63,469 bases of DNA from Kiritimatiellia bacterium (lineage in GTDB: Bacteria; Verrucomicrobiota; Kiritimatiellia; RFP12; JAAYLN01): positions 1 to 63,469 of the forward strand of contig JAFWPM010000057.1 of assembly GCA_017509565.1 (NCBI GenBank), read 5' to 3'. Made by a program: the position numbers and the translations under genes. The notes beneath the pieces are model-generated. The model saw nothing but the letters and a program-made list of their open reading frames with translations. It had not been told where the DNA came from and searched no databases. Below are positions 5,719 to 63,186 of this stretch, piece after piece; the stretch's first letter is position 1; each line of letters begins with the position of its first letter.

Positions 5719-7350
5719 ATGCCTCTCAACGTCACACCCAATGTCAACATTGACACGCTCCGCAATCTGGATGCAAACAAGACCTATTTCCTCTCCTCCA
5801 CGACCGGCAGGGTCAAGGAGGCGAGCATCTGGATGCGTTTCAAGTGCGCCATTGGCGTACAGAGCGCCCGCCAGAAGGTCAGCAATCTCGCGGATGCCGT
5901 CCGCGCGACGCTGCTCGACGCCGTTGGCCAGAGGAGCGACACTGGCCTCGAAGCCGACATCAGGACGATGGACATCGGGCACATGCTGAAGGGCAGCGCG
6001 ATCAAGAACATCGTGAACCGCTTTTCCGTTGCGAACGCCGGGACCATGGCGAAGGCGGACGCCACGGCCATCGCCAAGGCCATATCCGGACCCTTCGCCG
6101 CGAAGCTGGCCGCGCGCCACATCGGCATCGGCGACAGCCAGGCCATCGCCAGCATCTTCATGCATGCGTTCAAGCCAGTGCTCGACGGCGAGCTGCCGAT
6201 GAAGAAAGGCCCGGACGGCCACCAGGTCCTCGACAAGGCGGAAGTCGAAATGAAACTCAGCGAGGTGGCCAGGTCGGTCGAAAGCCTGCTCCACGACGTC
6301 GCGATGAGCGACAACCTCCGCGGGCTCCACATCGACAGCCACTACGCGCGGCACATCATCATGGTCCTCTTCCGCGAGGACGGCACCCGCAGCGAAGACG
6401 GAATGTCCGACCTGATGCCGCCCGACGAGGCCTTTGCCGCCAGCCTCTACAACCTCGACAAGCACAACGCGACGCAGAACAGCTTCGTCCACGACGAGCT
6501 TGTCAGCCATGGACGCGACCCAATCGCCTACGCGAAGAACATCCGCGAAATGTGCGGCGGGGACAAGGAGCTTGAAGCCATTGTCGAGCTCGGGCTGCGC
6601 TCCATCTGCGGGACCGGCGCCAACGAGCTGCGTCCCGACGACGTGGTAGCCAAGAAGATCGCCGACCTCAGGGACAACCTCGCCGAGGCGCGCGAAGTCG
6701 AGAAGCGGTTCCCCGGCTTCATGCCGGAGTTCATGGAGGCGATGTACGACCTTGCCGGCACCGCGATGCCAAAGGGCTCCATTGCGCGAATGGCCGAAGG
6801 CGTCGCCCGCGCCGACGTCTCCAAAATCTCCAAGCTAAACAGCTTCTCCGGCCCCGGCGCCATCCTGGAAGCCATCGACCAGCTTCGGACGGTAACGAAC
6901 GAACTGGGCAATCCCTATCAGGTGTTCGCCGACAAGCAGGACGACATCATTGCGGGAGGAGCCATGTACGGCGCCCCGCGCCGGATCGTGCAGGCGCTCG
7001 CGCTGGCGAAGGCCGGCCCATCGGCCCGCGCCCGCATTGCCAACGCGATGCACGGCACGGCCAGCCGCGAAGCGCTCTTCATCCTGGAGCGGCGCCAGTT
7101 CGAGGCTAAGTCCCCCAACCTGTACCACGGCCGCGAAAAGGACCTTCGCAAGAACCTCTTCGAAAACGAGATCGAAACGCTCAACGAGTTCTACCACCTC
7201 TTCCAGTCCCACGAGAACGCTCCAGAGGACATCGACTCCAAAGGCATCACCTGGGAGCAGGCGATTGAGGACAACGACTTCGACTTCGACCCCATGTTCG
7301 ACGCCCATGTTGCCAAGGCCCTTGAGGCCGAGCAGGCCGCAGGGCACTAA
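5719..7350 (+). CDS. Hypothetical protein, 543 aa, no recognisable domain or signal peptide
   Basis: Long ORF with coherent codon bias and an ATG start. Bracketed by REP units at 5557-5635 and 7401-7430. The antisense and alternate-frame ORFs are Arg/Pro-rich artefacts. Confidence 0.6.
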   Translation: MPLNVTPNVNIDTLRNLDANKTYFLSSTTGRVKEASIWMRFKCAIGVQSARQKVSNLADAVRATLLDAVGQRSDTGLEADIRTMDIGHMLKGSAIKNIVNRFSVANAGTMAKADATAIAKAISGPFAAKLAARHIGIGDSQAIASIFMHAFKPVLDGELPMKKGPDGHQVLDKAEVEMKLSEVARSVESLLHDVAMSDNLRGLHIDSHYARHIIMVLFREDGTRSEDGMSDLMPPDEAFAASLYNLDKHNATQNSFVHDELVSHGRDPIAYAKNIREMCGGDKELEAIVELGLRSICGTGANELRPDDVVAKKIADLRDNLAEAREVEKRFPGFMPEFMEAMYDLAGTAMPKGSIARMAEGVARADVSKISKLNSFSGPGAILEAIDQLRTVTNELGNPYQVFADKQDDIIAGGAMYGAPRRIVQALALAKAGPSARARIANAMHGTASREALFILERRQFEAKSPNLYHGREKDLRKNLFENEIETLNEFYHLFQSHENAPEDIDSKGITWEQAIEDNDFDFDPMFDAHVAKALEAEQAAGH

Positions 7351-7400
7351 CCCCAACAATATCCGGGCGGCCATCCGGCCCCAACCCGGCAACCCAACCC

Positions 7401-7430
7401 CAACATGAGAAGGGCGGCCCCAGGCCGCCC
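7401..7430. repeat. Third REP-like unit: CAACATGAGAAGGGCGGCCCCAGGCCGCCC
   Basis: Shares the CAACATGAG + GGGCGGCCC..GGCCGCC hairpin with 4517-4547 and 5600-5629. It lies between the hypothetical gene and the STAS gene. Confidence 0.6.
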
Positions 7431-7442
7431 GGAAACGGAAAA

Positions 7443-7739
7443 ATGAACATCGACAAGAAACTCGAAAACGGCCAGCTCTCCATCGCCCTCTCCGGCCGCC
7501 TGGACACGAACACCTCGCCAGACCTCGAAAGCGAGCTCAAGCTTGACGGCGTGAGCGAAATCGCCTTCGATTTCGCCAGCCTCGAATACATCTCATCGGC
7601 CGGGCTCCGCGTCCTGATGACGGCGCAGAAGGCGATGATGGCCTGCGGCGGCAAGATGACCATCGCGCATCCAAACGACATGGTCAAGGGCGTGTTCGAC
7701 ATGACAGGGCTCAGTTCCGTCTTCACACTCATCCCATGA
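7443..7739 (+). CDS. STAS-domain anti-sigma-factor antagonist (SpoIIAA/RsbV-like)
   Basis: 98 aa. Contains LSGRLDTNTSPDLE and the phosphorylatable-serine region FASLEYISSAGLRVLM. Its stop overlaps the next gene's start (ATGA, 7736-7739). Confidence 0.85.
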   Translation: MNIDKKLENGQLSIALSGRLDTNTSPDLESELKLDGVSEIAFDFASLEYISSAGLRVLMTAQKAMMACGGKMTIAHPNDMVKGVFDMTGLSSVFTLIP

Positions 7740-9838
7740 ACGAACGTTGGAAAACATTCGCGTGGGCCGCGGCCCTCTTCTACGCGATACTTGTGCTCTT
7801 CTCCTGGAGCGCGCTGACCCACCGCGCCATGCTCCAGACGGAGTCGATGCTCGACTACGCGATGCTCGACCTCGACGCGACGCTCAACGGCTCGATCGAC
7901 ACGATGCTCATGCACGCCGCCGATTCGATCACGGAGCAGCTGGGGCGGCCGCAGTCGCTTTCCCCGGAGGCGATCGCGCTCATCGCGAAGCAGCGCGACC
8001 TCGACGAAGTGAACGTCGTCGCGCGCGACGGCACCTTCCTGTCTTCCACCGACGCGCGCCTCGTCGGCCTCTGCATGGCCGACCGGCCGAAGTCCGCGGA
8101 GTTCTTGGTCCTCACAAACGGCGTCCGGCACGCGCTTTCGCACCACTTCCGCCCCGGCGCGCACAACCCCGACGTTCGCCGCAAGTACGTCGGCGTCGCC
8201 TTCCCGGGCGGCGACGGGCTGGTGCAGGTCGGCATCGACGAAGCTCGCGTCACGGGAATGTTCCCGTCGATAATGGGCTTCATCTTCGACGCCTGGCTCC
8301 TTGGCGAGAAGGGCTTCTTCCTCTGCGCCGACCTGGCCGACGGGCACCTCATCTCCAACCCGGCGCGCCATCGCGACGAGGCGAAGTTCCTTGCCGAAAC
8401 CGGCTACGACCCGGAGGCGCCTGGCGTCGTCGAAGACGGCCGCACAACCTTCAATGCGACGCTTTTCGGCGCGCCCCACGACTGCCGCGCGGTTGTATTC
8501 TGCGGGCACCGCGTGGTGGCGGCGCTCCCGCCTGGGGAATACTACTCGACGCGCACCTTCTATGTCGCGCTGATAGCGACCGTCCTAGGTCTCGTGACGC
8601 TGGCATTCGTGCTGCTCGTGCGGCGCATCGACATTGCGTCCGGGCGCCTGCAGGCCTTCTACGCCGCGGAGGACGAGCGTCGCGCCAAGGAGTTCGCCAT
8701 CGCCTCGACAATCCAGAACTCCGCGCTTCCGGGACCCATTCCGCCCGACGCCGCCTTTGCGCTCGCGGCGGCAATGCACCCGGCGCGCGAAGTCGGAGGC
8801 GACTTCTTCGACTACTTCCGGCTCGACGCCACGCACCTGGCCTTCCTTGTCGCCGACGTCTCCGGGAAGGGCGTCACCGCCGCGCTCTACATGATGACCT
8901 CCAAGACGCTCATAAAGGACAAGCTCGCGGCAGTCCGCGACCCGGCCGAGGCCCTCACGAAAGCCAATGCCGAACTCTGCGCGAACAATCCCGCCAACAT
9001 GTTCCTCACGGCGTGGGTCGGCGTGCTTGACCTGGAAACCGGTGTCGTGACCTACGCCAACGCGGGCCACAACCCGCCGGTGACGGTCGAAGGCCGGGAG
9101 GTCGATTTCGTGACGCCGAAGTCCGGACCAGTTCTCGCGTTCATGGACGGCGTGGTCTACAAGCCGTTCACACTGCGCCTTGCGCCCGGGGAGACGCTTT
9201 TCCTCTACACGGACGGCGTGACCGAGGCGCTCGACGCCTCCGGCGCGCTCTTTGGCGAGGACCGGCTGCATGAGGCCCTTGTGGCGGCGTCCGGCGCGGA
9301 ACCAGCCTCGATGTGCAGGATTGTGCGGGCCGCCGTGGCCGCCTTTGCGGAGGGAACGCCGCAGGCCGACGACATCACGGTGCTTGCGGTGCGCTACTCC
9401 GGCGCCGGGGAAGGCGGCGGCGAACGGCGCAGCTTCCCCGCGACGCAGGCGGGAGTGGCGGCGGCGAGCGATTTCCTGGACGAAGCCATTGCCGAAGCCG
9501 AAGCCAGGTCCCCTGGATTGGGGATACTTTCGCCGCCGCTCCACATAATCATCGACGAGATAGCGTCGAACATCGTCAAGCATTCCGGCGCGAAGGACTT
9601 CGGTTTGCGGATTGAGTGCCTGTCGGAACCGGCCGGCGCCAGACTGACCTTTTTCGATGCCGGCAAGCCGTTTGACCCGCTGGCCCATGCGGACCCCGAC
9701 CCGACGCTGCCAGTCACGGAGCGCCCGATTGGCGGACTGGGCATAATGATGGTCCGCAAGATGGCCGATTCCGTGGAATACAAGCGGGTCGACGACCGGA
9801 ACTGCCTCACCGTGACAAAACTTTGTCCGGAAATATAG
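7736..9838 (+). CDS. Membrane sensor fused to a PP2C/SpoIIE phosphatase and an RsbW-like HATPase serine kinase
   Basis: Two hydrophobic segments flank a ~250-aa extracytoplasmic region. PP2C motifs are EVGGDFFDY, VADVSGKGVTAAL, LYTDGVTEA and DDITVLAV. The C-terminus carries an N-box DEIASNIVKHS, DAGKPFDP and GGLGIMMVRK. Confidence 0.8.
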   Translation: MNERWKTFAWAAALFYAILVLFSWSALTHRAMLQTESMLDYAMLDLDATLNGSIDTMLMHAADSITEQLGRPQSLSPEAIALIAKQRDLDEVNVVARDGTFLSSTDARLVGLCMADRPKSAEFLVLTNGVRHALSHHFRPGAHNPDVRRKYVGVAFPGGDGLVQVGIDEARVTGMFPSIMGFIFDAWLLGEKGFFLCADLADGHLISNPARHRDEAKFLAETGYDPEAPGVVEDGRTTFNATLFGAPHDCRAVVFCGHRVVAALPPGEYYSTRTFYVALIATVLGLVTLAFVLLVRRIDIASGRLQAFYAAEDERRAKEFAIASTIQNSALPGPIPPDAAFALAAAMHPAREVGGDFFDYFRLDATHLAFLVADVSGKGVTAALYMMTSKTLIKDKLAAVRDPAEALTKANAELCANNPANMFLTAWVGVLDLETGVVTYANAGHNPPVTVEGREVDFVTPKSGPVLAFMDGVVYKPFTLRLAPGETLFLYTDGVTEALDASGALFGEDRLHEALVAASGAEPASMCRIVRAAVAAFAEGTPQADDITVLAVRYSGAGEGGGERRSFPATQAGVAAASDFLDEAIAEAEARSPGLGILSPPLHIIIDEIASNIVKHSGAKDFGLRIECLSEPAGARLTFFDAGKPFDPLAHADPDPTLPVTERPIGGLGIMMVRKMADSVEYKRVDDRNCLTVTKLCPEI

Positions 9839-9881
9839 CCGTGGCAAGGCCCTGTGAGGTTCAGCCCGGATGCCGCCAGCG

Positions 9882-11321
9882 CTAGGCGTTCCAGAGCCTG
9901 TGCTGGCGGCGTCCTTGCGCAATGAGCATTGACATGCCGTTCTCCACGCGGCATCCTGCGGAGGATGCGCGGCGGAGCAGGGGAGTCCGGGCCGGCTTGT
10001 AGATGAGGTCGTACACGAGTTCGTGGCCGGAGAAGCGGTATTCTGGAATGGGGTCGTCTGCGGGGTTTGACGAACCATTGCCGAGCGAGGTGCACTGGAC
10101 GATGAGGTCGAATGGCCCATTCCCGGCGATGGCGCCGATTGGAAGCGCCCTGAATCCGGAAAGGGCGGAGAGTTCGGCCGCGGCGGCGGCATTGCGGGCG
10201 TAGATGGCGCCGTCGGCCCCAAGGCGTGCGAGGGCGTAGGCCACGGCGCGCGCGGCGCCGCCGGAGCCAATGACCGCGGTTCGCGTTCCGGCAAGACTTT
10301 GGCGGCCGGCGAAGGCGGAGATGGCGTCGGAGAAGCCGTCGATGTCTGTGTTGTGGCCGACCCGGCGTCCATTTTCCCAGACGACGGTGTTGGCGGCGCC
10401 CACAGCCGCGGCCTCGGGGGAAATGTCGTCAAGCAGCGCCAGCAGTGACTGCTTGTGGGGCACAGTCACCGCCAGCCCGCGGAAGCCAAGCTCCTCGCAG
10501 AGCCCGATGGCCGGGCCTATTTCGCGGGACGGGATGGGGACCATGACGGCGTCGGTGCCGTCGCCATCGCAGTAGGCGCGGTGGATTTCGGGGCTTGAGG
10601 TAACGGCGAGCGGCCATCCCGTGACGGCGCGGAGCGAAGTGGCGGGGCCGGTTTTGCGCACCTGGTGGATGCGCGAGAGGCTCACGATGTCGATATGGCC
10701 TATGGCCCCCATGGAGGCGGTCGATTCGGGCGGCGAGGCGAAGGTCAGCATTGAGCCGAATGCGGCGGGAAGGATGCGCGTGACGGCGCCGGCCGGCCCC
10801 ATTGCGCAGAAAATCCGGTCGCGCGGTGGAAGGGCCGAGACGGCGCGGTGGAAGGCCGCGATGTCTGCGGGCGAATTTGCCTTGAAGGCAAGCTTGGGAA
10901 TTTCGTCTTCGGAGCGCAGAATGGAATCGATTGAGGCGGCGAGGGCGCCGTCGTAGCCCCGGAAGTCGTGGACGCTGCGGATGATGCGCGTCCCTGAGCG
11001 GCGGGCGAGGGCCTCAAGTCCGGGGACGGCGAAGTCGGATTCGAAATCGACGAAATCGAAGGCGGGCAGGGCCGCGGCGAACAATGGCTCCCGGCTGGCG
11101 TCTTCGCCGTCGAAGGCACCTCCGTCGCGGGTGCGGCGGAATGTCAGAATGGCCGGAATGCCGGCCTGGGCGGGAAAGTCGGCGATGGCGCCGGGATCCG
11201 GCGCAGCGAGTCGGTCCGCGCGCAGTTCAAGGAAGTCGGCTAGGGCGCCGTATTTGCGGGCAAGCGCCAGGTCCTCTGCGAGCGATGGCGCGGCAAGGGT
11301 CAGGCAGATGCGCTGTTTCAT
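9882..11321 (-). CDS. aroDE: Bifunctional type I 3-dehydroquinate dehydratase / shikimate 5-dehydrogenase
   Basis: N-terminal half has DHQase I motifs (LELRADRL, SVHDF, KLAFKA). C-terminal half is shikimate dehydrogenase-like (VTVPHKQ, GHNTDIDGF, VIGSGGAARAV). Start ATG 11321 forms an ATGA overlap with the upstream stop. The track ORF extension to 11561 was rejected. Confidence 0.85.
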   Translation of the reverse strand: MKQRICLTLAAPSLAEDLALARKYGALADFLELRADRLAAPDPGAIADFPAQAGIPAILTFRRTRDGGAFDGEDASREPLFAAALPAFDFVDFESDFAVPGLEALARRSGTRIIRSVHDFRGYDGALAASIDSILRSEDEIPKLAFKANSPADIAAFHRAVSALPPRDRIFCAMGPAGAVTRILPAAFGSMLTFASPPESTASMGAIGHIDIVSLSRIHQVRKTGPATSLRAVTGWPLAVTSSPEIHRAYCDGDGTDAVMVPIPSREIGPAIGLCEELGFRGLAVTVPHKQSLLALLDDISPEAAAVGAANTVVWENGRRVGHNTDIDGFSDAISAFAGRQSLAGTRTAVIGSGGAARAVAYALARLGADGAIYARNAAAAAELSALSGFRALPIGAIAGNGPFDLIVQCTSLGNGSSNPADDPIPEYRFSGHELVYDLIYKPARTPLLRRASSAGCRVENGMSMLIAQGRRQHRLWNA

Positions 11322-12712
11322 GCGATCTCCCCGATGTCGAGGGTCACGATGCGGACGTCGCCGAAGCCGCATGGCAGGGCGAAGGATATGCGGGATCCGG
11401 CGCGCTTTTTGTCGCGGCCCATAATCGGGACAAGCGATTCCAGGGGGAACTGCGGGGCGGAGACGGGAAGTCCGGCCTCGCGGAAGCGCCCGGCGAGGGC
11501 ATCTGGCCAGTTGGCGCGGGCGAGGCCAAGGCGGACGGCGAGCCTTGCCTCCTCGACGCACCCGATTGCCACGGCCTCGCCGTGCGAAAGTTGGTAGCCG
11601 CTTGCGGCCTCGACCGCGTGCCCGATGGTGTGGCCGCAGTTGAGGAGCATCCTGAGCCCCTTCTCCTCCCTGGGATCCTGGCGGACGATGCCGACCTTGA
11701 CTGAAAGGTTTTCGGCTATTTCGGCCGGTGTGGGGATGCCGGAGACGGAGTGGCGCAGCGAGCCGGAGATGGTCTCATGCTTTATCATCTCTGCCTGGCC
11801 CGAGGCGAGTTCGCGCGCGGGGAGCGTGGCGAGGTAGGAGGTGTCGATGATGACGAGGGAAGGGGAGTGGAAGGCGCCGACGAGGTTCTTCCCCTCCGGG
11901 AGGTCGAAGCCGGTCTTGCCGCCGGTGGAGGCGTCAACCATGGAAAGGAGTGTCGTGGGGATGTTGACCCAGCGGATGCCGCGCATCCAGGTCGCGGCGG
12001 CGAAGCCGGCCATGTCCCCGGTCACCCCGCCGCCGAAGGCGAGAATGGAGTCCTTGCGCCCGATTTGCGCCTCGCGGAAGGCCCCCCATATGGAGCTGAC
12101 GGTGTCGAGGCGCTTGAACTGCTCCCCGTTTGGGATGCCGAAGTGCGGGATGTCGGCAAGGGCGGCGTGGTGGATGCGCGCGACATTCGAGTCCGCGACC
12201 GCGAATTTGGCCATGCCGGCGGCGCCGCCGAGATTGCGGCCGACAACCACTAGGGAGTCCGGAAGGTCGAACGACATGGCGATGGAGGACTGGAACGAGC
12301 CGTAATGGGCGCGGCGTTCCTCGTACTTGTCGCCGAGGGGGCGGGAGGCGGGGTCGATGGCGATTCGCCGCGCCAGCTCCGCGGGTGGTGGCGGTTCCAG
12401 GAGCCATACTCGGCCATTGTCCCCGGCGAATGCGCGGTTGGACGCATCGAGAAGCGTCCCGCCGCCAAGCGAGATTACGGCCTGGGCGCCACCGAGGCCC
12501 TCTACGACGGCCCGGAGCGTTTCGGACTCCAGCCTGCGGAAGGCTGGTTCGCCGTCGGTCCTGAAAATCTCCGGAATCGGGCGGCCTGCGCGGCGGGCGA
12601 TTTCGGCGTCGAGGTCGATTGCCGGGAGGCGCAGCGCGGCGGCGAGGCGTGCGCCGAGGGTCGTCTTGCCGCATGCCGGCGGCCCGTAGAGGAAAATCGA
12701 AGAGTTGCTCAT
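11318..12712 (-). CDS. aroKB: Bifunctional shikimate kinase / 3-dehydroquinate synthase
   Basis: N-terminal P-loop FLYGPPACGKTTLG. C-terminal AroB motifs include GGGVTGDMAGFAAATWMRGI and NCGHTIGHA. ATG 12712 forms an ATGA overlap with the tyrA stop. An alternative ATG lies at 12727. Confidence 0.85.
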   Translation of the reverse strand: MSNSSIFLYGPPACGKTTLGARLAAALRLPAIDLDAEIARRAGRPIPEIFRTDGEPAFRRLESETLRAVVEGLGGAQAVISLGGGTLLDASNRAFAGDNGRVWLLEPPPPAELARRIAIDPASRPLGDKYEERRAHYGSFQSSIAMSFDLPDSLVVVGRNLGGAAGMAKFAVADSNVARIHHAALADIPHFGIPNGEQFKRLDTVSSIWGAFREAQIGRKDSILAFGGGVTGDMAGFAAATWMRGIRWVNIPTTLLSMVDASTGGKTGFDLPEGKNLVGAFHSPSLVIIDTSYLATLPARELASGQAEMIKHETISGSLRHSVSGIPTPAEIAENLSVKVGIVRQDPREEKGLRMLLNCGHTIGHAVEAASGYQLSHGEAVAIGCVEEARLAVRLGLARANWPDALAGRFREAGLPVSAPQFPLESLVPIMGRDKKRAGSRISFALPCGFGDVRIVTLDIGEIA

Positions 12713-13599
12713 TTCGGTACGGTCCATTCGTCGATGAAGTTCTCGGGCTTCCGCCTGGTATTCTCAATCTTCCGCCATTCGCGCGTCCCGCGCATTGGGC
12801 GTGAGTAGACCGCGACGGGGCCGGCGTTGACCTTGTCCTTGATCTTGCGGCCTTCGGCTAGCTGGCCCGCGACGGCGGCGGTGTCGTCGGCCGCGATTGC
12901 GTCGCGCATCGCCGACATCCTGGCGATGAAGCGGTCGATCACCGGGACTAGCGCCTGCCGGTTTTCGCTGAAAAGTTCCGACCATAGAGCGGGATCGGGG
13001 GCGCCTACGCGAATCATGTCGCGGAAGCTGCCTGCGGAGAATCCGTCGTAGCCAAGTGCGAGTTCGTCGCGCAGGTACGCTGAGGAGACAATGTGGCAGA
13101 GCTGGCTGGTGTAGGCGATTTTCGAGTCGTGCTCGGCGGCGTCGGCGATGACGATCTTCTTGAATCCCGCTTCGAGGAAGAGGTTGTTGAGGATGTCCAT
13201 CGTCTGGGATGGGACGCCCGTGCCGGGGACGAGGATCATCGAGGCGTTGCGGAAGAGGCCTGGGTCGGAGTTCCTGAAGCCCGCGACCTCCTTGCCGGCC
13301 ATCGGGTGGCCGCCGACGAAGAACCACTTCGCGCCGGTGGCCACCGGCGCGATGCGGTCCATCACGTATCCCTTCACGCCGCAGGTATCGACGACTGCCG
13401 CGCCCTCCTTGAACTCGCCGGCGTGCGCCTCAACCCATTCCACGGCGGTGGTGGGGTGGAGCGCCACAATGACAACGTCGGCACCGGAGACGTCAACGGG
13501 GTCGCCAATGTCGAAGCCGGAGACCTTGTGCCCCCTTTCCGAAAACACCTTAAAGAAGGAGCCGCCTATCAGCCCCAGACCTGCTATGGCAATCTTCAC
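12709..13599 (-). CDS. tyrA: Prephenate dehydrogenase
   Basis: Rossmann N-terminus VKIAIAGLGLIGGSF and PDH-type core. GTG 13599 is preceded by GGAG about 10 nt upstream and sits just after the pheA stop. The track start at 13626 is a TTG that overlaps pheA. Confidence 0.75.
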   Translation of the reverse strand: MKIAIAGLGLIGGSFFKVFSERGHKVSGFDIGDPVDVSGADVVIVALHPTTAVEWVEAHAGEFKEGAAVVDTCGVKGYVMDRIAPVATGAKWFFVGGHPMAGKEVAGFRNSDPGLFRNASMILVPGTGVPSQTMDILNNLFLEAGFKKIVIADAAEHDSKIAYTSQLCHIVSSAYLRDELALGYDGFSAGSFRDMIRVGAPDPALWSELFSENRQALVPVIDRFIARMSAMRDAIAADDTAAVAGQLAEGRKIKDKVNAGPVAVYSRPMRGTREWRKIENTRRKPENFIDEWTVPK

Positions 13600-13603
13600 A
13601 GTG

Positions 13604-14770
13604 TCAAATCTCCGCGTATGCGCCAAGGAAAGTAAAGTGCTCTATTTCCGGATCGAGAGCCAGTTCCGAAATCAGGCGCCTGACCTTCGGGTTGCCAGGA
13701 GTGGCCTCGAATTCGAAATTGAAGCGGAATTCGAAATCGCGTCCGGGAACGGGGCGGGATTCGAGTTTTGTGAGGTTTACGCCGATTGCCGAGAACTTCG
13801 CGAGAATGGCGCCGAGCGAACCGGGGCGGTGCGGCAGGCTCATCATGATTGAAATCTTGCGCGAGTCGGGGTATATCTCAAGGTTCTTGGATATGCAGAT
13901 GAAGCGCGTGAAGTTCGCGGGGGTGTTTGATATGTCCTCCGCGAGGATGTCGAGGCCGTAGACCTCGGCGCATTCGCGCGAGGCGATTGCGGCGAAGTCG
14001 TCGCGGCCGCTTTCGGCCACCATTCGCGCGGCCACGGCGGTGTTGATGGCCGGGGTCTGGCGGACGTCCTTCAGCGATTGCAGGCAGGCCGAGCATTGCT
14101 GGAGCGCCTGCGGGTGGCTGGTCACTTCCCGGATAGACTTGAGCGAGGCCCCCTTGCGCGCCAGCAGGACATGGGAGACTGGTATGCGCGTGGCGCGGAC
14201 GATGCTGAAGTTGTGGCGCGCCATCTGGTCGTAGACGGAAGTCACGGAACCGGCCGTCGAGTTCTCGATTGGAAGGACACCGTAGCGGCACATTCCCTTT
14301 TCAACGGCGTTGAACACATCCTCGAAGCCGTTGAAGAAGAGAATGACGGGGAACTTGAAAATCCGCGAGGCGGCTATCTGCGAGTAGGCGCCCTCGGTGC
14401 CCTGGCAGGCTACTGTCTCGCCGGATGGGAATATGGAGCCGGTGTCGGCGGCGGCCTTGTCCATCGCCATGGTGACGTCGCTCTCCCCGATTAGCAGCTC
14501 GCGCTGGAGCGCCTTTGACAGCCCGAAAAGGGTCGTGAAGAGAAGGGCGGCGCCGTCCTCGCGGTCCGGGCCCACCTTTTTGGCGATGCGGGCGAGTATC
14601 TCCCGTTCGCGGGCCGGATTTGAAATGGGGGAGCCGTCGGCCCTCTTCGCGTCGGCCACGTCGCGCGCGAGGTCGAGCCGCCTGTTGTAGAGTTCGGCAA
14701 TCTGGTCGTCGATGGCGTCCAGTTCGCGCCTTGTTTCTTCGATGTTTCTCATGGCTATGCAGTGTCTCAT
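13604..14770 (-). CDS. pheA: Chorismate mutase / prephenate dehydratase (P-protein)
   Basis: Chorismate mutase helix region ELDAIDDQIAELYNRRLDLA. PDT region VACQGTEGAYSQ. ACT region SLPHRPGSLGAILAKFSAIGVNLTKLESRP. An alternative start is ATG 14752. Confidence 0.85.
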   Translation of the reverse strand: MRHCIAMRNIEETRRELDAIDDQIAELYNRRLDLARDVADAKRADGSPISNPAREREILARIAKKVGPDREDGAALLFTTLFGLSKALQRELLIGESDVTMAMDKAAADTGSIFPSGETVACQGTEGAYSQIAASRIFKFPVILFFNGFEDVFNAVEKGMCRYGVLPIENSTAGSVTSVYDQMARHNFSIVRATRIPVSHVLLARKGASLKSIREVTSHPQALQQCSACLQSLKDVRQTPAINTAVAARMVAESGRDDFAAIASRECAEVYGLDILAEDISNTPANFTRFICISKNLEIYPDSRKISIMMSLPHRPGSLGAILAKFSAIGVNLTKLESRPVPGRDFEFRFNFEFEATPGNPKVRRLISELALDPEIEHFTFLGAYAEI

Positions 14771-14785
14771 GCGATGGTTGAGTGA

Positions 14786-15793
14786 CTAGCGGATTGCAAG
14801 CGGGCGCAGCTTGCGGACGAGTTCCATGGTCTCCGCGAACATCTCCGGCGTTTGGGACTGCGCGCCGTCGCACTTCGCGTGGGGCGGGTCGTTGTGCACT
14901 TCGATTATCAGGGCGTCGGCGCCAATGGCGGTGGCGGCGGCGGCGACTGGGTGCACGAGCTTGGCGACGCCCGTGGCGTGGGAGGGGTCCACGACGACCG
15001 GAAGGTGGGTCAGCCTGTGGAGGATTGGCACGACCGTGAGGTCGATTGTGTTGCGAGTCGCCGTCTCGAACGTCCGTATGCCGCGTTCGCAGAGCATCAC
15101 GTTGGGGTTGCCGGAGGCCATGATGTACTCCGCGCTCATCAGCAGTTCCTGAAGTGTGCCGCTGAGGCCGCGCTTGAGAAGGATCGGCTTCCGCGTGTGG
15201 TGGCCGACCTCCTTTAGCAGGTCGAAGTTCTGCATGTTGCGGGCGCCGATTTGGATGACGTCTACGTCGTTGAAAAGGTCGAGGTGGGCGGAGTTCATCA
15301 GCTCGGTGACGATCGGGAGCCCGGTCTCCCTCTTCGCGGCGATGAGCATCTTCAGGCCCTCGGCGCCGAGTCCCTGGAATGAGTATGGCGATGTCCTGGG
15401 CTTGAAGGCGCCGCCACGCAGGAGGGTCGCGCCGGCGGCCTTGACGGCCTTGGCGATGCCGATGACCTGTTCCTCGGACTCTACGCTGCACGGCCCGGCG
15501 ATGACCAGGAAGTGCCCGCCGCCGATTGTCGGGCCGGAGCAGTCCACTATGGTGTCTTCTGGATGGAACTTGCGGTTGGCGGCCTTGAAGGGGTCCTGTA
15601 TCCGCTGGACGGATTCGACGACGTCCAGCGCCGACACCAGGTCGATGTCCAGGTGCGACACATCGCCCACGCAGCCGATCAGCGTCTCCTGGGCGCCGAC
15701 TGAGACGTGCGGGTCGATCTTGTGGGCCTTGAGCCATGCGAGCAGGTTGTCCACCTGCCGTTTCTCGGCGTTCTTCTTGACCAGAATAATCAT
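14786..15793 (-). CDS. aroF: 3-deoxy-7-phosphoheptulonate (DAHP) synthase, KDO8PS-like class I-beta with an N-terminal regulatory domain
   Basis: Contains VIAGPCSVES, LRGGAFKPRTSPYSFQG and LLKRG. AAGGAAG Shine-Dalgarno 7 nt upstream of ATG 15793. Confidence 0.8.
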   Translation of the reverse strand: MIILVKKNAEKRQVDNLLAWLKAHKIDPHVSVGAQETLIGCVGDVSHLDIDLVSALDVVESVQRIQDPFKAANRKFHPEDTIVDCSGPTIGGGHFLVIAGPCSVESEEQVIGIAKAVKAAGATLLRGGAFKPRTSPYSFQGLGAEGLKMLIAAKRETGLPIVTELMNSAHLDLFNDVDVIQIGARNMQNFDLLKEVGHHTRKPILLKRGLSGTLQELLMSAEYIMASGNPNVMLCERGIRTFETATRNTIDLTVVPILHRLTHLPVVVDPSHATGVAKLVHPVAAAATAIGADALIIEVHNDPPHAKCDGAQSQTPEMFAETMELVRKLRPLAIR

Positions 15794-15831
15794 TGTGTTC
15801 TTCCTTGGTTGCTGTGGCCCTGCCGATACGG

Positions 15832-15856
15832 AAAACCCCGCCTCGGCCGGGCGGGG
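15832..15856 (-). terminator. Intrinsic terminator / attenuator hairpin in the aroF leader
   Basis: Minus strand reads AAACCCCGCC-CGGCCGA-GGCGGGG-UUUUCC: a 7-bp all-GC/CG stem, 7-nt loop and U4 tract. It lies about 38 nt upstream of the aroF ATG and upstream of its RBS. Confidence 0.7.
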
Positions 15857-15895
15857 TTTCGGTTTGCCAGTTGTTCGTCCTCAATTGTGAACACG

Positions 15896-15964
15896 CTACG
15901 GCAACCTTGCCCGGCCCATAAGCCCGGTAAAGTAAAAGTAAAAGCCGTAGAAGTAGCGGTTCAT
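15896..15964 (-). CDS. 22-aa aromatic-rich leader peptide MNRYFYGFYFYFTGLMGRARLP
   Basis: Hand-translated from the minus strand. ATG at 15964, GGAAAG 9 nt upstream, TAG at 15898-15896. Residues 4-12 contain 4 Tyr and 4 Phe. Located upstream of the terminator and the Phe/Tyr biosynthesis operon. Too short to appear in the ORF track. Confidence 0.65.
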   Translation of the reverse strand: MNRYFYGFYFYFTGLMGRARLP

Positions 15965-15994
15965 GACTGTGGACTTTCCAAAATTACGGCAAAT

Positions 15995-16023
15995 ATTCTA
16001 CCACAATGCGCAATTCAGGACAA
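15995..16023 (-). promoter_or_regulatory. Sigma70-like promoter candidate TTGTCC-17 nt-TAGAAT for the aro operon leader
   Basis: Minus-strand -35 at 16023-16018 and -10 at 16000-15995, about 30 nt upstream of the leader ATG. Sequence match only. Confidence 0.4.
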
Positions 16024-16037
16024 ATGTTTTTTTGCGC

Positions 16038-16940
16038 CTAGTCGGCCCGCCGCGCCGGTTTGACGCCCCGGACGGCGTCGGCGGCGCATTTGCGGATAAG
16101 CGCCGCGTTTTCAGGGTGGCGCATCGTCGGCGACGGCGCCCAGTCCATTGACTCCACGTCCGCGCCGAGCAGCTTTGCCGCCCAGACGCACGCCTGGAGG
16201 TATTTGCCGTCGTTGTTCAGGTGGATTGAGTCGCCGGAGAGTTCGCCGTTGACGGGCTTCATGCTTCCGACCACGTCGTCATCGATGCCGGAAACGGGAA
16301 GCCGTTCCCTGAAGAGCTGGATTGCCGTGCCGGTCGGGATGATGTCGAAGCCGTATTTTGCGCCGAGGTCGGCGTAGTTGGCGGCGAGCCTGTCGAACAT
16401 CCCGCGCTGGTCAAAGCCCCATTCGCCGGGGCCGCCCGCGGCCTGGTCGCAAATGCGCTTGTCGCCGTTGCAGTAGCTCCACGTCTCCTGGATTGCAATC
16501 TTCGCCTGCGGCGCGAGTTCGCGGATTGTGGAAATCAGCTCGTCGGCGTAGGGGTGGTATGAGCCGGGGTCCCAGCTCTTGGGGCTGGCCTGCTGGATGG
16601 TCACGATGTCCCACTTCTCGGCGGCGAGCATCTGCGGGATGTTGCCGTACATCTTCGACCCCTTGTCGGTTTCCCTGACTGTGACGGCGGACTTCAGCGC
16701 GGGCTCCTCGCCTTCGCCAAGCGACGCGAAGTTCCAGTTGACCTCGTATGGGGCGAAGCCCTCCTCGCCGGCGCGCCTGATGTTCTCGCAGTGCCTCGCA
16801 AGGGAGCAGCCGCCGATGTAAAGCGAGCAGATGTCCACCCCTGCGCCGCACTGGCGGGCGACCTCCGGGGTGTATTGGAGGACGCAGATCGAGAAACTGT
16901 TCCCGATCATGAGGACCTTAAGTGGAATCAGTGGTGACAT
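16038..16940 (-). CDS. DUF4886-like SGNH/GDSL-fold hydrolase
   Basis: N-terminal KVLMIGNSFS block and C-terminal GDSIHLNNDG block. Confidence 0.6.
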   Translation of the reverse strand: MSPLIPLKVLMIGNSFSICVLQYTPEVARQCGAGVDICSLYIGGCSLARHCENIRRAGEEGFAPYEVNWNFASLGEGEEPALKSAVTVRETDKGSKMYGNIPQMLAAEKWDIVTIQQASPKSWDPGSYHPYADELISTIRELAPQAKIAIQETWSYCNGDKRICDQAAGGPGEWGFDQRGMFDRLAANYADLGAKYGFDIIPTGTAIQLFRERLPVSGIDDDVVGSMKPVNGELSGDSIHLNNDGKYLQACVWAAKLLGADVESMDWAPSPTMRHPENAALIRKCAADAVRGVKPARRAD

Positions 16941-16961
16941 GTTGCGGTTCCTTTCTAGGTT

Positions 16962-17855
16962 TTAAGTTTGGCAAAGCAGTTTCCCTGCCGCGTCGCGGCC
17001 AGCCATAATCGCGTCGTCGACGCGCGTGAAGTCCATTGTCGGAATGTCGCCGACGGCCGGTTCGAGAATCCATTCGGGCCTCTCGCGCTCCATTTCCCAT
17101 TGGGCGATCCTGTCCTCGCAGATGCGCGTCGTGCGAGAGAGCATGTCGAAGAAGCCCTGGCCGCGTTCGTCGGCGATGCCGAGTTCGCGCCTGAGGGCGT
17201 CGTGCAGCTTCTCCCTTATTCCGATGGCCTGGTTCACGAACTTGGGGAGCCGGTGCGTGGAGTATGGGCAGCGGCCCTGGTTGTCCACATTCACGGCCAG
17301 GACCCTCCTCGCGCCGAGGAATCGCGCCGCTGCGACGGGCACGGGGCTTGAAACGCCGCCGTCGACGAGCAGCGCGGAGCCGCGCCTTACCGGGGTGAAT
17401 ACGCCTGGTATTGAAATCGACGCCCTGATTGCCGGAAGCAGGCGCCCGCGTGAAATCCGGATGGCCGCGCCTGTGGCGATGTCGGTCGCCATTACGGCGA
17501 AGGGCAGCCCAATGGAGTCGAAGGTGGTGTCGGGGACGACTGTCGCTATGAAGTCCATGACGCGGCGTCCCTTGACGAGGCCGGATTTCATGAAGCCGAA
17601 GTCGAAGAACAGGGATGCGGCCTCGGCCATGTCCATTGCCTTGAGCGTATCGACAAGGCGCCCGAAGTTCCCGGAGGCGTATGCGGCGCCGACGATGGCC
17701 CCCATGCTGGTCCCGGCCACGAACTCCGGCGCGATGCCGTTTTCAAGGAGCGTCTGGAGGACGCCGACATGAGCCAGCCCGCGCGCCCCTCCACTGCCCA
17801 GCGCGATGCCGAGGCCGTCGCCGGTGACGCGTGAAGGTTTTCCGGATTCTCCCAT
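16962..17855 (-). CDS. Patatin-like phospholipase
   Basis: Contains GIALGSGGARGLAHVGVL (oxyanion hole), GTSMGA (GxSxG) and a VDGG Asp motif. Confidence 0.85.
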   Translation of the reverse strand: MGESGKPSRVTGDGLGIALGSGGARGLAHVGVLQTLLENGIAPEFVAGTSMGAIVGAAYASGNFGRLVDTLKAMDMAEAASLFFDFGFMKSGLVKGRRVMDFIATVVPDTTFDSIGLPFAVMATDIATGAAIRISRGRLLPAIRASISIPGVFTPVRRGSALLVDGGVSSPVPVAAARFLGARRVLAVNVDNQGRCPYSTHRLPKFVNQAIGIREKLHDALRRELGIADERGQGFFDMLSRTTRICEDRIAQWEMERERPEWILEPAVGDIPTMDFTRVDDAIMAGRDAAGKLLCQT

Positions 17856-63111: not shown

Positions 63112-63145
63112 CGGTAAGACCGCGAGTCTTGGTATCCGCGGGAAA

Positions 63146-63173
63146 CTCTCCGGGCGCGCCCGGAGAGTTTTTT
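63146..63173 (+). terminator. Rho-independent terminator
   Basis: CTCTCCGGGCGCGCCCGGAGAG hairpin followed by TTTTTT, 35 nt after the stop at 63111. Confidence 0.85.
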
Positions 63174-63186
63174 GCGCAAAAGTGGC

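Follow-up and report, generated by a model that had tools for sequence, protein, structure and literature searches.

The window analysed here is positions 1 to 63,469 of contig JAFWPM010000057.1 from Kiritimatiellia bacterium assembly GCA_017509565.1. On its minus strand, a DUF4886 gene ends with its stop codon at 16038, and a DAHP (3-deoxy-D-arabino-heptulosonate 7-phosphate) synthase gene starts with its ATG at 15793. The spacer between them holds all of the elements of a leader: a promoter-like pair, an upstream open reading frame (uORF) with a run of Phe and Tyr codons, and an intrinsic terminator. From its sequence, this leader is very probably a leader-peptide (ribosome-mediated) attenuator of transcription, with charged tRNA-Phe and tRNA-Tyr as the signals that it senses. 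An earlier note on this DNA had proposed an attenuator, and the promoter pair, uORF, hairpin, AAGGAAG site, and ATG all lie where it put them. The leader contains the following elements. (The promoter comes from a promoter scan, the terminator from sequence and folding, the 1:2 hairpin from folding, and the two antiterminator strands from RNAduplex; the others were read directly.)

16023-16018 and 16000-15995, minus strand: promoter-like pair, TTGTCC and TAGAAT, with a 17-nt spacer
15964-15896, minus strand: leader uORF of 22 codons plus stop, from ATG (15964) to TAG (15896), encoding MNRYFYGFYFYFTGLMGRARLP
15955-15929, minus strand: regulatory codons 4-12 of the uORF, UAC UUC UAC GGC UUU UAC UUU UAC UUU
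15933-15921 with 15916-15904, minus strand: 1:2 hairpin (anti-antiterminator) of region 1 with region 2, folding at −12.7 kcal/mol
15916-15903, minus strand: antiterminator 5' strand (region 2), GGCCGGGC-AA-GGUU, within uORF codons 17-21
15858-15845, minus strand: antiterminator 3' strand (region 3), AACC-CC-GCCCGGCC, overlapping the terminator 5' arm and loop
15859-15833, minus strand: intrinsic terminator, with 5' arm AAACCCCGCC (15859-15850), loop CGGCCGA (15849-15843), and 3' arm GGCGGGGUUU (15842-15833)
15806-15800, minus strand: Shine-Dalgarno sequence AAGGAAG of the DAHP synthase gene, outside the terminator hairpin

TTGTCC-17-TAGAAT is the only sigma-70-like match in 14500-17500, and a TG at 16003-16002 makes its −10 box an extended −10 (TGGTAGAAT, 16003-15995). 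The predicted transcription start is about 24 nt ahead of the uORF's ATG, which lies 30 nt past the −10 hexamer. A scan of 7000-15800 found no promoter-like site inside the operon.

As the earlier note had read it, residues 4-12 of the leader peptide are Y F Y G F Y F Y F, with four Tyr and four Phe. Given the combined frequency of Phe and Tyr in seven neighbouring genes (0.05), the probability of at least 8 in 9 residues is about 4e-10. No other ATG-started open reading frame of 8-50 codons in the window (685 of them, on both strands) has more than 3 Phe or Tyr per 9 residues. Three of the four Phe codons in the run are UUU, which is a rare codon (8 TTT and 91 TTC in the neighbouring genes, 9882-17855), and the Tyr codons are UAC throughout, which is the common choice. 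The rare UUU codons might make stalling sharper; alternatively, they might stem from the AU-rich strand of the 1:2 helix.

The cluster of Phe and Tyr codons matches the end products of the operon that follows, which includes pheA, tyrA, and enzymes of the common pathway. Its genes, assigned with Pfam, adjoin or overlap each other:

9882-15793, minus strand: the five-gene operon under the leader's predicted control
15793-14786, minus strand: DAHP synthase with an N-terminal ferredoxin-like (FXD) regulatory domain
14770-13604, minus strand: chorismate mutase-prephenate dehydratase-ACT (pheA)
about 13626-12709, minus strand: prephenate dehydrogenase (tyrA)
12727-11318, minus strand: shikimate kinase-dehydroquinate synthase fusion (aroKB)
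about 11320-9882, minus strand: type I dehydroquinase-shikimate dehydrogenase fusion (aroDE)

The product of the gene that converges on the end of this operon (7736-9838, plus strand) is 700 amino acids long; it contains a phosphatase domain of the SpoIIE/PP2C type and ends in a HATPase_c_2 domain at the C-terminus.

The terminator has a core stem of CCCCGCC (15856-15850) and GGCGGGG (15842-15836) that is extendable to 10 bp, and its U tract is UUUU (15835-15832). The hairpin folds at −19.8 kcal/mol (z = −2.45). It begins 37 nt after the stop codon of the uORF, and its U tract ends 38 nt before the DAHP synthase ATG. Compact canonical terminators of the hairpin-plus-U kind are rare here: across both strands of these 63 kb (about 65% GC) there are two, and the leader terminator is one of them. 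The second lies at about 63142-63175 on the plus strand, where AACTCTCCGGGCGCGCCCGGAGAGTT is followed by TTTTTT. A generic scan of the window for further pairs of leader-like open reading frame and terminator gave no credible candidate.

The closest named genomes, by the DAHP synthase, are Kiritimatiellae/Kiritimatiellia metagenome-assembled genomes (MAGs) from rumen and gut (74-81% identity), which with the GC content bears out the earlier note's impression of a GC-rich, non-proteobacterial host. Nearer relatives of the enzyme (77-99% identity) are present in ENA and Logan assemblies, and relatives at 60-67% identity are overwhelmingly from gut or rumen Clostridia, plus one Lentisphaerae MAG. 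The earlier note had suggested a search upstream of orthologues, and such a search strongly favours its reading. For each of 157 related DAHP synthase loci that had sufficient upstream sequence (related loci are numbered with an L below), we scored the best ATG-started uORF of 8-50 codons within 400 nt upstream. A uORF with at least 5 Phe or Tyr in 9 residues is present on the sense strand at 133 of the 157 loci, as compared to 4 of 157 on the reverse complement; with at least 6 in 9 residues, the counts are 122 and 1. These Phe/Tyr-rich uORFs occur in Kiritimatiellia, Lentisphaerae, and many Clostridia. Most of the 157 loci also have a hairpin and T-run 20-60 nt 5' of the DAHP synthase ATG, and uORF and terminator occur together at 109 non-redundant loci. 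Typically, these 109 have a 24-codon uORF, 38 nt from uORF to terminator, and 34 nt from terminator to ATG, and the geometry in the window (22 codons, 37 nt, and 38 nt) fits this spacing. AAGGA-type sites lie at the equivalent place in relatives.

Kiritimatiellia relatives (74-92% protein identity) retain the promoter, the uORF, and the terminator. The promoter motif TTG-N17-TGnTAnAAT precedes the uORF in L163, L164, L165, L169, L171, L175, L081, and L088 as well. The homologous leader peptide is MSANLYGFYFYFTGPSGRVGLS in L163, MNWNRYGYYFYFTSPSGRVSLP in L164, MNH..SYFYYFSFTK... in L165 and L169, and ...FGYWFYFYYTELSQAGGTLS in L171 and L175; leaders of the homologous type are also present in L173, L001, L081, L002, and L088. 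Within the aromatic run, the differences among relatives are synonymous (TTT/TTC, TAC/TAT, or GGC/GGA) or are swaps of Phe to Tyr. Such a pattern points to selection on the encoded residues rather than on an RNA motif. Closely related DAHP synthase genes that lie within other operons (L003, L004, L177, and L178) have no long spacer upstream and no such leader; therefore, the leader is tied to the operon-leading position and not to the enzyme.

The relatives also vary in several details. In L165 (140-200) and L169 (2270-2330), which have lower GC content and 83-84% DAHP synthase identity, the ATG of the uORF is just 12 nt past the −10 hexamer, and the leader peptide may be translated from a leaderless or near-leaderless mRNA. 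Tandem copies of TGTGTTGTTTT separate the −10 box from the uORF in L164 (2285-2330), L167, and L168 (90% DAHP synthase identity), while the window has no copies. A Trp codon lies within the aromatic run of L171, L175, L088, L173, and L081 (GYWFYFYY, GYWYF, FYFWYRY, or FAWFYYF), while the leader in the window has no Trp. Given these Trp codons, the amino acids that are sensed may differ among lineages. In L176 (1270-1398), the called "gene" of 42 amino acids is a long form of the leader uORF (MKMKVLPYSQSITENYLLMKINFGYWFYFYY...), that is, a leader peptide that was mis-annotated as a hypothetical protein. The make-up of the operon varies too: triose-phosphate isomerase follows tyrA in L164 and L167, and the operon in L173 ends after pheA.

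The relatives also bear on whether the hairpin could be a plain terminator or insulator of the DUF4886 gene, in which case the Phe/Tyr open reading frame would be a coincidence and the operon would be driven from elsewhere. The DUF4886 gene is co-directional with the operon and ends at 16038, and the symmetry of the hairpin, which has an A tract on its 5' side and a U tract on its 3' side, resembles that of a bidirectional terminator. However, the gene upstream of the leader changes by sub-clade and is often divergent (it may be DUF4886, dUTPase, an unannotated gene, an ACT protein, or LpxI), and the uORF and the hairpin persist regardless. Because the upstream gene differs in this way, the hairpin cannot serve to terminate it. 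Also, the sole promoter-like site sits between the DUF4886 gene and the uORF, and the 38 nt from the hairpin to the ATG have neither the room nor the signal for another promoter. Finally, the chance probability given above for eight Phe or Tyr in nine residues argues against coincidence. We consider the probability of this explanation to be close to negligible.

We also compared the leader to catalogued RNA and protein families. A scan of 15500-16300 against Rfam, with E values up to 10, gave no T-box match, and the leader families (Phe, Trp, His, Leu, Thr, and Leu/Phe) were below threshold. The terminator hairpin accounts for the sub-threshold matches (rnk_pseudo, with 27 bits as compared to a threshold of 55). 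We rejected T-box, riboswitch, and known leader families as identifications of the element, as the only matches to Rfam were sub-threshold and driven by the terminator. At the gathering threshold, 36 related loci had no T-box, riboswitch, or other Rfam family. Searches of the leader peptides against Pfam and NCBIfam gave no match.

A second possibility is that an RNA-binding protein or a small ligand controls a terminator/antiterminator switch here. In that case, the UAC/UUU repeats would be a TRAP-like or riboswitch-like binding motif, and translation of the uORF would be dispensable. Firmicutes often regulate aromatic genes by T-box or TRAP, and a short (UUUUAC)n repeat could in principle form a protein-binding array. 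The poor Shine-Dalgarno sequence of the uORF in the window, and the placement of the ATG very near the −10 box in several relatives, would also fit with a uORF whose translation does not matter. However, no T-box or riboswitch was matched in the window or at the 36 related loci. At the 109 loci, an in-frame ATG precedes the aromatic run and a stop codon follows it, in uORFs of 15-47 codons. The nucleotides of the run vary freely, by synonymous changes and Phe/Tyr exchanges, so that the conserved trait is the composition of the peptide. Also, the stop codon is placed such that a ribosome there could mask region 2. This explanation seems very unlikely to us.

The conserved RNA structure provides further evidence for attenuation. 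We aligned 12 leaders from the Kiritimatiellia clade with MAFFT and predicted their common structure with RNAalifold, which returned two helices: the terminator and a hairpin in the distal uORF. In this structure, 91% of the cells are standard pairs, as compared to 31-59% if the partners are slid by 1-3 columns. Both sides have changed in 11 of the 17 pairs, as compared to 1-5 pairs if slid and a mean of 7.0 pairs in shuffles. The covariation score is 0.514, as compared to 0.284 for shuffles (0 of 500 were as high) and at most 0.206 if slid. Considered separately, pairing in the terminator reaches 94.7%, and 6 of its 11 pairs have changed on both sides; in the 1:2 helix, both sides have changed in 5 of the 6 pairs. 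In the window, the region 1 strand of the 1:2 hairpin covers the last Tyr and Phe codons of the run and the Thr-Gly-Leu codons, and an outer helix is formed by CUACGGC (15950-15944) with GCCGUAG (15902-15896).

The antiterminator in the window has 12 base pairs: 8 bp, a 2x2 internal loop, and another 4 bp (RNAduplex −23.8 kcal/mol). The earlier note had reported an 8-nt complementarity, and this match between GGCCGGGC (15916-15909) and GCCCGGCC (15852-15845) is real but is only part of the helix. The segment 15920-15845 folds at −32.3 kcal/mol (z = −2.95). The register of the helix slides by 3-5 nt between sub-clades, so we used shuffle and cross-locus tests instead of column-wise covariation. 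For each of the 109 non-redundant loci, we took the RNA that starts at the last aromatic codon and runs 15 nt beyond the stop codon, and we paired it with the 5' arm and loop of the locus's own terminator. The mean pairing energy was −14.2 kcal/mol, as compared to −9.4 kcal/mol for shuffled segments and −9.85 kcal/mol for the terminators of other loci. Individually, 52% of the loci had P < 0.05 with mononucleotide shuffles; with dinucleotide shuffles, 44% had P < 0.05 and 23% had P < 0.01. The letters of the helix change by sub-clade while the complementarity is kept. For example, L169 has CUCAAGC/GCUUGAG in place of the GGCCGGGC/GCCCGGCC of the window, L002 has CCGGAGCGGG/CCCGCUCCGG, and L001 has GGGCGGGGU/ACCCCGCC. 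The complementarity that is kept extends to bases in the terminator loop, which the terminator itself does not constrain.

A third possibility is that the uORF is translated but acts by another route: as a TnaC-like arrest peptide that responds to free Phe or Tyr, by translation-coupled Rho-dependent termination, or by way of a functional hydrophobic peptide. The evidence that the uORF is translated would support this as well. Aromatic-rich nascent chains can contact the ribosomal exit tunnel, and the short U tract could imply assistance from Rho. On the other hand, conservation of the peptide is limited to its composition, while sequence, length (15-47 codons), and C-terminus vary, and the peptides match no small-protein family in Pfam or NCBIfam. 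Furthermore, a canonical hairpin with a U tract, which covaries, is conserved directly after the uORF, and the antiterminator overlaps an arm of this terminator. We view these other routes as unlikely.

Thus, the components of an attenuator of the trpL/pheL class are all in place: a leader open reading frame, cognate codons, a terminator, a mutually exclusive antiterminator, and a 1:2 pairing over the regulatory codons. The architecture, geometry, conservation, covariation, and excess complementarity of the antiterminator are established by computation. Together with the order of the elements, these support the earlier note's proposal of attenuation. From them we infer the transcription start, the translation of the uORF, the stalling, and the termination in vivo. 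In the model that we propose, transcription would begin at the extended −10 promoter, about 24 nt ahead of the uORF, and a ribosome would translate the 22-codon leader as RNA polymerase advances. If Phe or Tyr is scarce, then the ribosome would stall on codons 4-12 and would occupy region 1 (15933-15921), leaving region 2 (15916-15903) free. Region 2 would then capture 15858-15845, which would block the terminator, and the polymerase would go on into the genes for DAHP synthase, pheA, tyrA, aroKB, and aroDE. If both amino acids are ample, then the ribosome would reach the UAG (15898-15896) and mask most of region 2, the hairpin at 15859-15833 would form, and transcription would stop at the U tract near 15832.

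Several of our results weigh against this model. First, two of the signals in the window are weak: the Shine-Dalgarno-like sequence of the uORF is GGAAAG, 9 nt 5' of the ATG, and the U tract is only UUUU and is followed by CCGUAU. A consensus terminator scan of the minus strand did not call the hairpin at 15859-15833, probably because the AAA/UUU extension of the stem leaves a single U in the tail. Second, the antiterminator of the window, taken alone, is of modest significance (P = 0.036, 1000 dinucleotide shuffles) because the region is GC-rich, and in some Clostridia members (L014 and L023), the complementarity is not significant with the segments as we defined them. Third, the earlier note had suggested folding the full leader with parts of it masked. 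The terminator does form in these folds, but the position of the ribosome makes no difference: at equilibrium, the probability of the terminator is about 0.92 for every masked position. Finally, a truncated transcript without a ribosome also has the antiterminator in its minimum free energy (MFE) structure, with the 2:3 pairing preferred over 1:2, so that thermodynamics does not predict a state in which the absence of translation means termination.

As equilibrium always favours the terminator, read-through must be kinetic, as in the trp operon of E. coli, where the choice between terminator and antiterminator is kinetic. Folding the full leader at equilibrium is thus uninformative, and we instead folded the nascent RNA, using just the unoccupied part downstream of the ribosome and leaving the 3' arm of the terminator unmade. 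For the window, the MFE structure contains the antiterminator if the A site is at any of codons 1-13, and the antiterminator is gone from codon 15 to the stop codon, which is the pattern that the earlier note had expected (free on stalling and masked at the stop codon). Across the 109 loci, the 5' arm and loop of the terminator form a mean of 12.6-12.9 pairs with upstream RNA if the ribosome is stalled on the aromatic codons, as compared to 5.6 pairs if it is at the stop codon.

The element in the window evidently belongs to a large uncatalogued family that is absent from Rfam, Pfam, and NCBIfam. A Phe/Tyr uORF and a terminator precede FXD-type DAHP synthase operons at more than 100 Clostridia loci (among L005-L160; for example, L014:2800-3000, L023:2780-3000, and L034), and the genes downstream across the Clostridia loci are tyrA-like and aroKB/aroB-like. 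The carriers include cultured organisms: Oscillibacter valericigenes Sjm18-20, Pseudoflavonifractor sp. AF19-9AC, and Hominicoprocola fusiformis. That the next-closest enzymes are from Clostridia and have the same kind of leader suggests that the operon and its attenuator moved jointly between phyla, with convergence as a possible alternative. More broadly, we give roughly even credence to a joint reading in which a cross-phylum family of dual Phe/Tyr attenuators precedes FXD-type DAHP synthase operons in Oscillospiraceae, Lachnospiraceae, Christensenellales, Kiritimatiellia, and Lentisphaerae, is, rather than the T-box, the main aromatic sensor in these Firmicutes, and perhaps has a leader that travels with the operon.

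These results give a concrete model for how aromatic amino acid biosynthesis is controlled in uncultured Kiritimatiellia. Two levels of control would apply: the allosteric FXD domain on DAHP synthase, and attenuation that reads the charging of the Phe and Tyr tRNAs. The reach of leader-peptide attenuation would also be widened, with one design at more than 100 non-redundant loci from gut and rumen Clostridia and from bacteria of the Planctomycetes-Verrucomicrobia-Chlamydiae (PVC) superphylum. Although the mechanism will not surprise a specialist, the breadth of the family and its cultured hosts give it value for annotation and for experiments: cataloguing the family would improve annotation, as some of its uORFs are called as hypothetical genes, and would yield natural switches that respond to Phe and Tyr.

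The most familiar systems of this kind are pheL and trpL of E. coli, in which a leader open reading frame that is rich in codons for the end product is combined with 1:2, 2:3, and 3:4 pairings and an intrinsic terminator (a summary of the mechanism is given in PMC11802643). Like pheL-pheA and trpL, the leader in the window has cognate codons, the three alternative pairings, and a terminator just before the first structural gene, and its terminator is more stable than its antiterminator, which implies a kinetic choice. In contrast to pheL, it is unrelated in sequence and lies outside of the leader families in Rfam. Where pheL has a run of Phe codons, the leader in the window interleaves Phe and Tyr codons, so that two amino acids are predicted to be sensed; where pheL precedes pheA alone, it precedes a five-gene operon led by DAHP synthase; and its host is in the PVC superphylum rather than the Gammaproteobacteria. 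The T-box leaders for Phe and Tyr in Firmicutes also lie 5' of amino acid genes and decide between terminator and antiterminator according to the charging of a tRNA, but a T-box binds the uncharged tRNA directly, by means of about 200 nt of structured leader, and has no uORF.

A 2010 survey still regarded leader peptides as essentially confined to Proteobacteria and Actinobacteria, except for one His leader in bacilli (PMC2965389). Our literature searches turned up no account of Phe/Tyr leaders from either the Clostridia or the PVC superphylum, but most subscription journals were outside of our coverage, so an earlier description may exist. The earlier note had nevertheless overrated the novelty of the element, as leaders of related kinds upstream of aroF are known in Corynebacterium glutamicum and predicted in Acholeplasma. 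In C. glutamicum, the aroR leader (Phe-Tyr-Phe) lies upstream of the aroF operon, and its attenuation is relieved by ribosome stalling; in experiments, it was only the limitation of Phe that had an effect (Neshat et al., 2014, as described in PMC11802643). By analogy, aroR seems to be the closest functional precedent, as it too has Phe and Tyr codons in a leader before an operon whose first gene is for DAHP synthase, but it has a single Phe-Tyr-Phe motif and is from Actinobacteria, while the leader in the window has eight aromatic codons. The motif uORFC-13-1 has 24 representatives, which lie upstream of aroF in Acholeplasma and in environmental sequences that are unassigned (Brewer et al., 2021, PMC8632094). 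It was put forward as an attenuator that senses Phe, and its description mentions "at least one" Phe codon but no Tyr component or antiterminator (PMC8632094). As far as our scans show, the motif is not in Rfam 15. Compared by description, it shares the association with aroF, the uORF, and the terminator architecture, while the family described here is broader and includes Clostridia, Kiritimatiellia, and Lentisphaerae. The mechanism is a known one, and what is new here, as compared to these systems, is the dual Phe/Tyr codon run and the new phylum.

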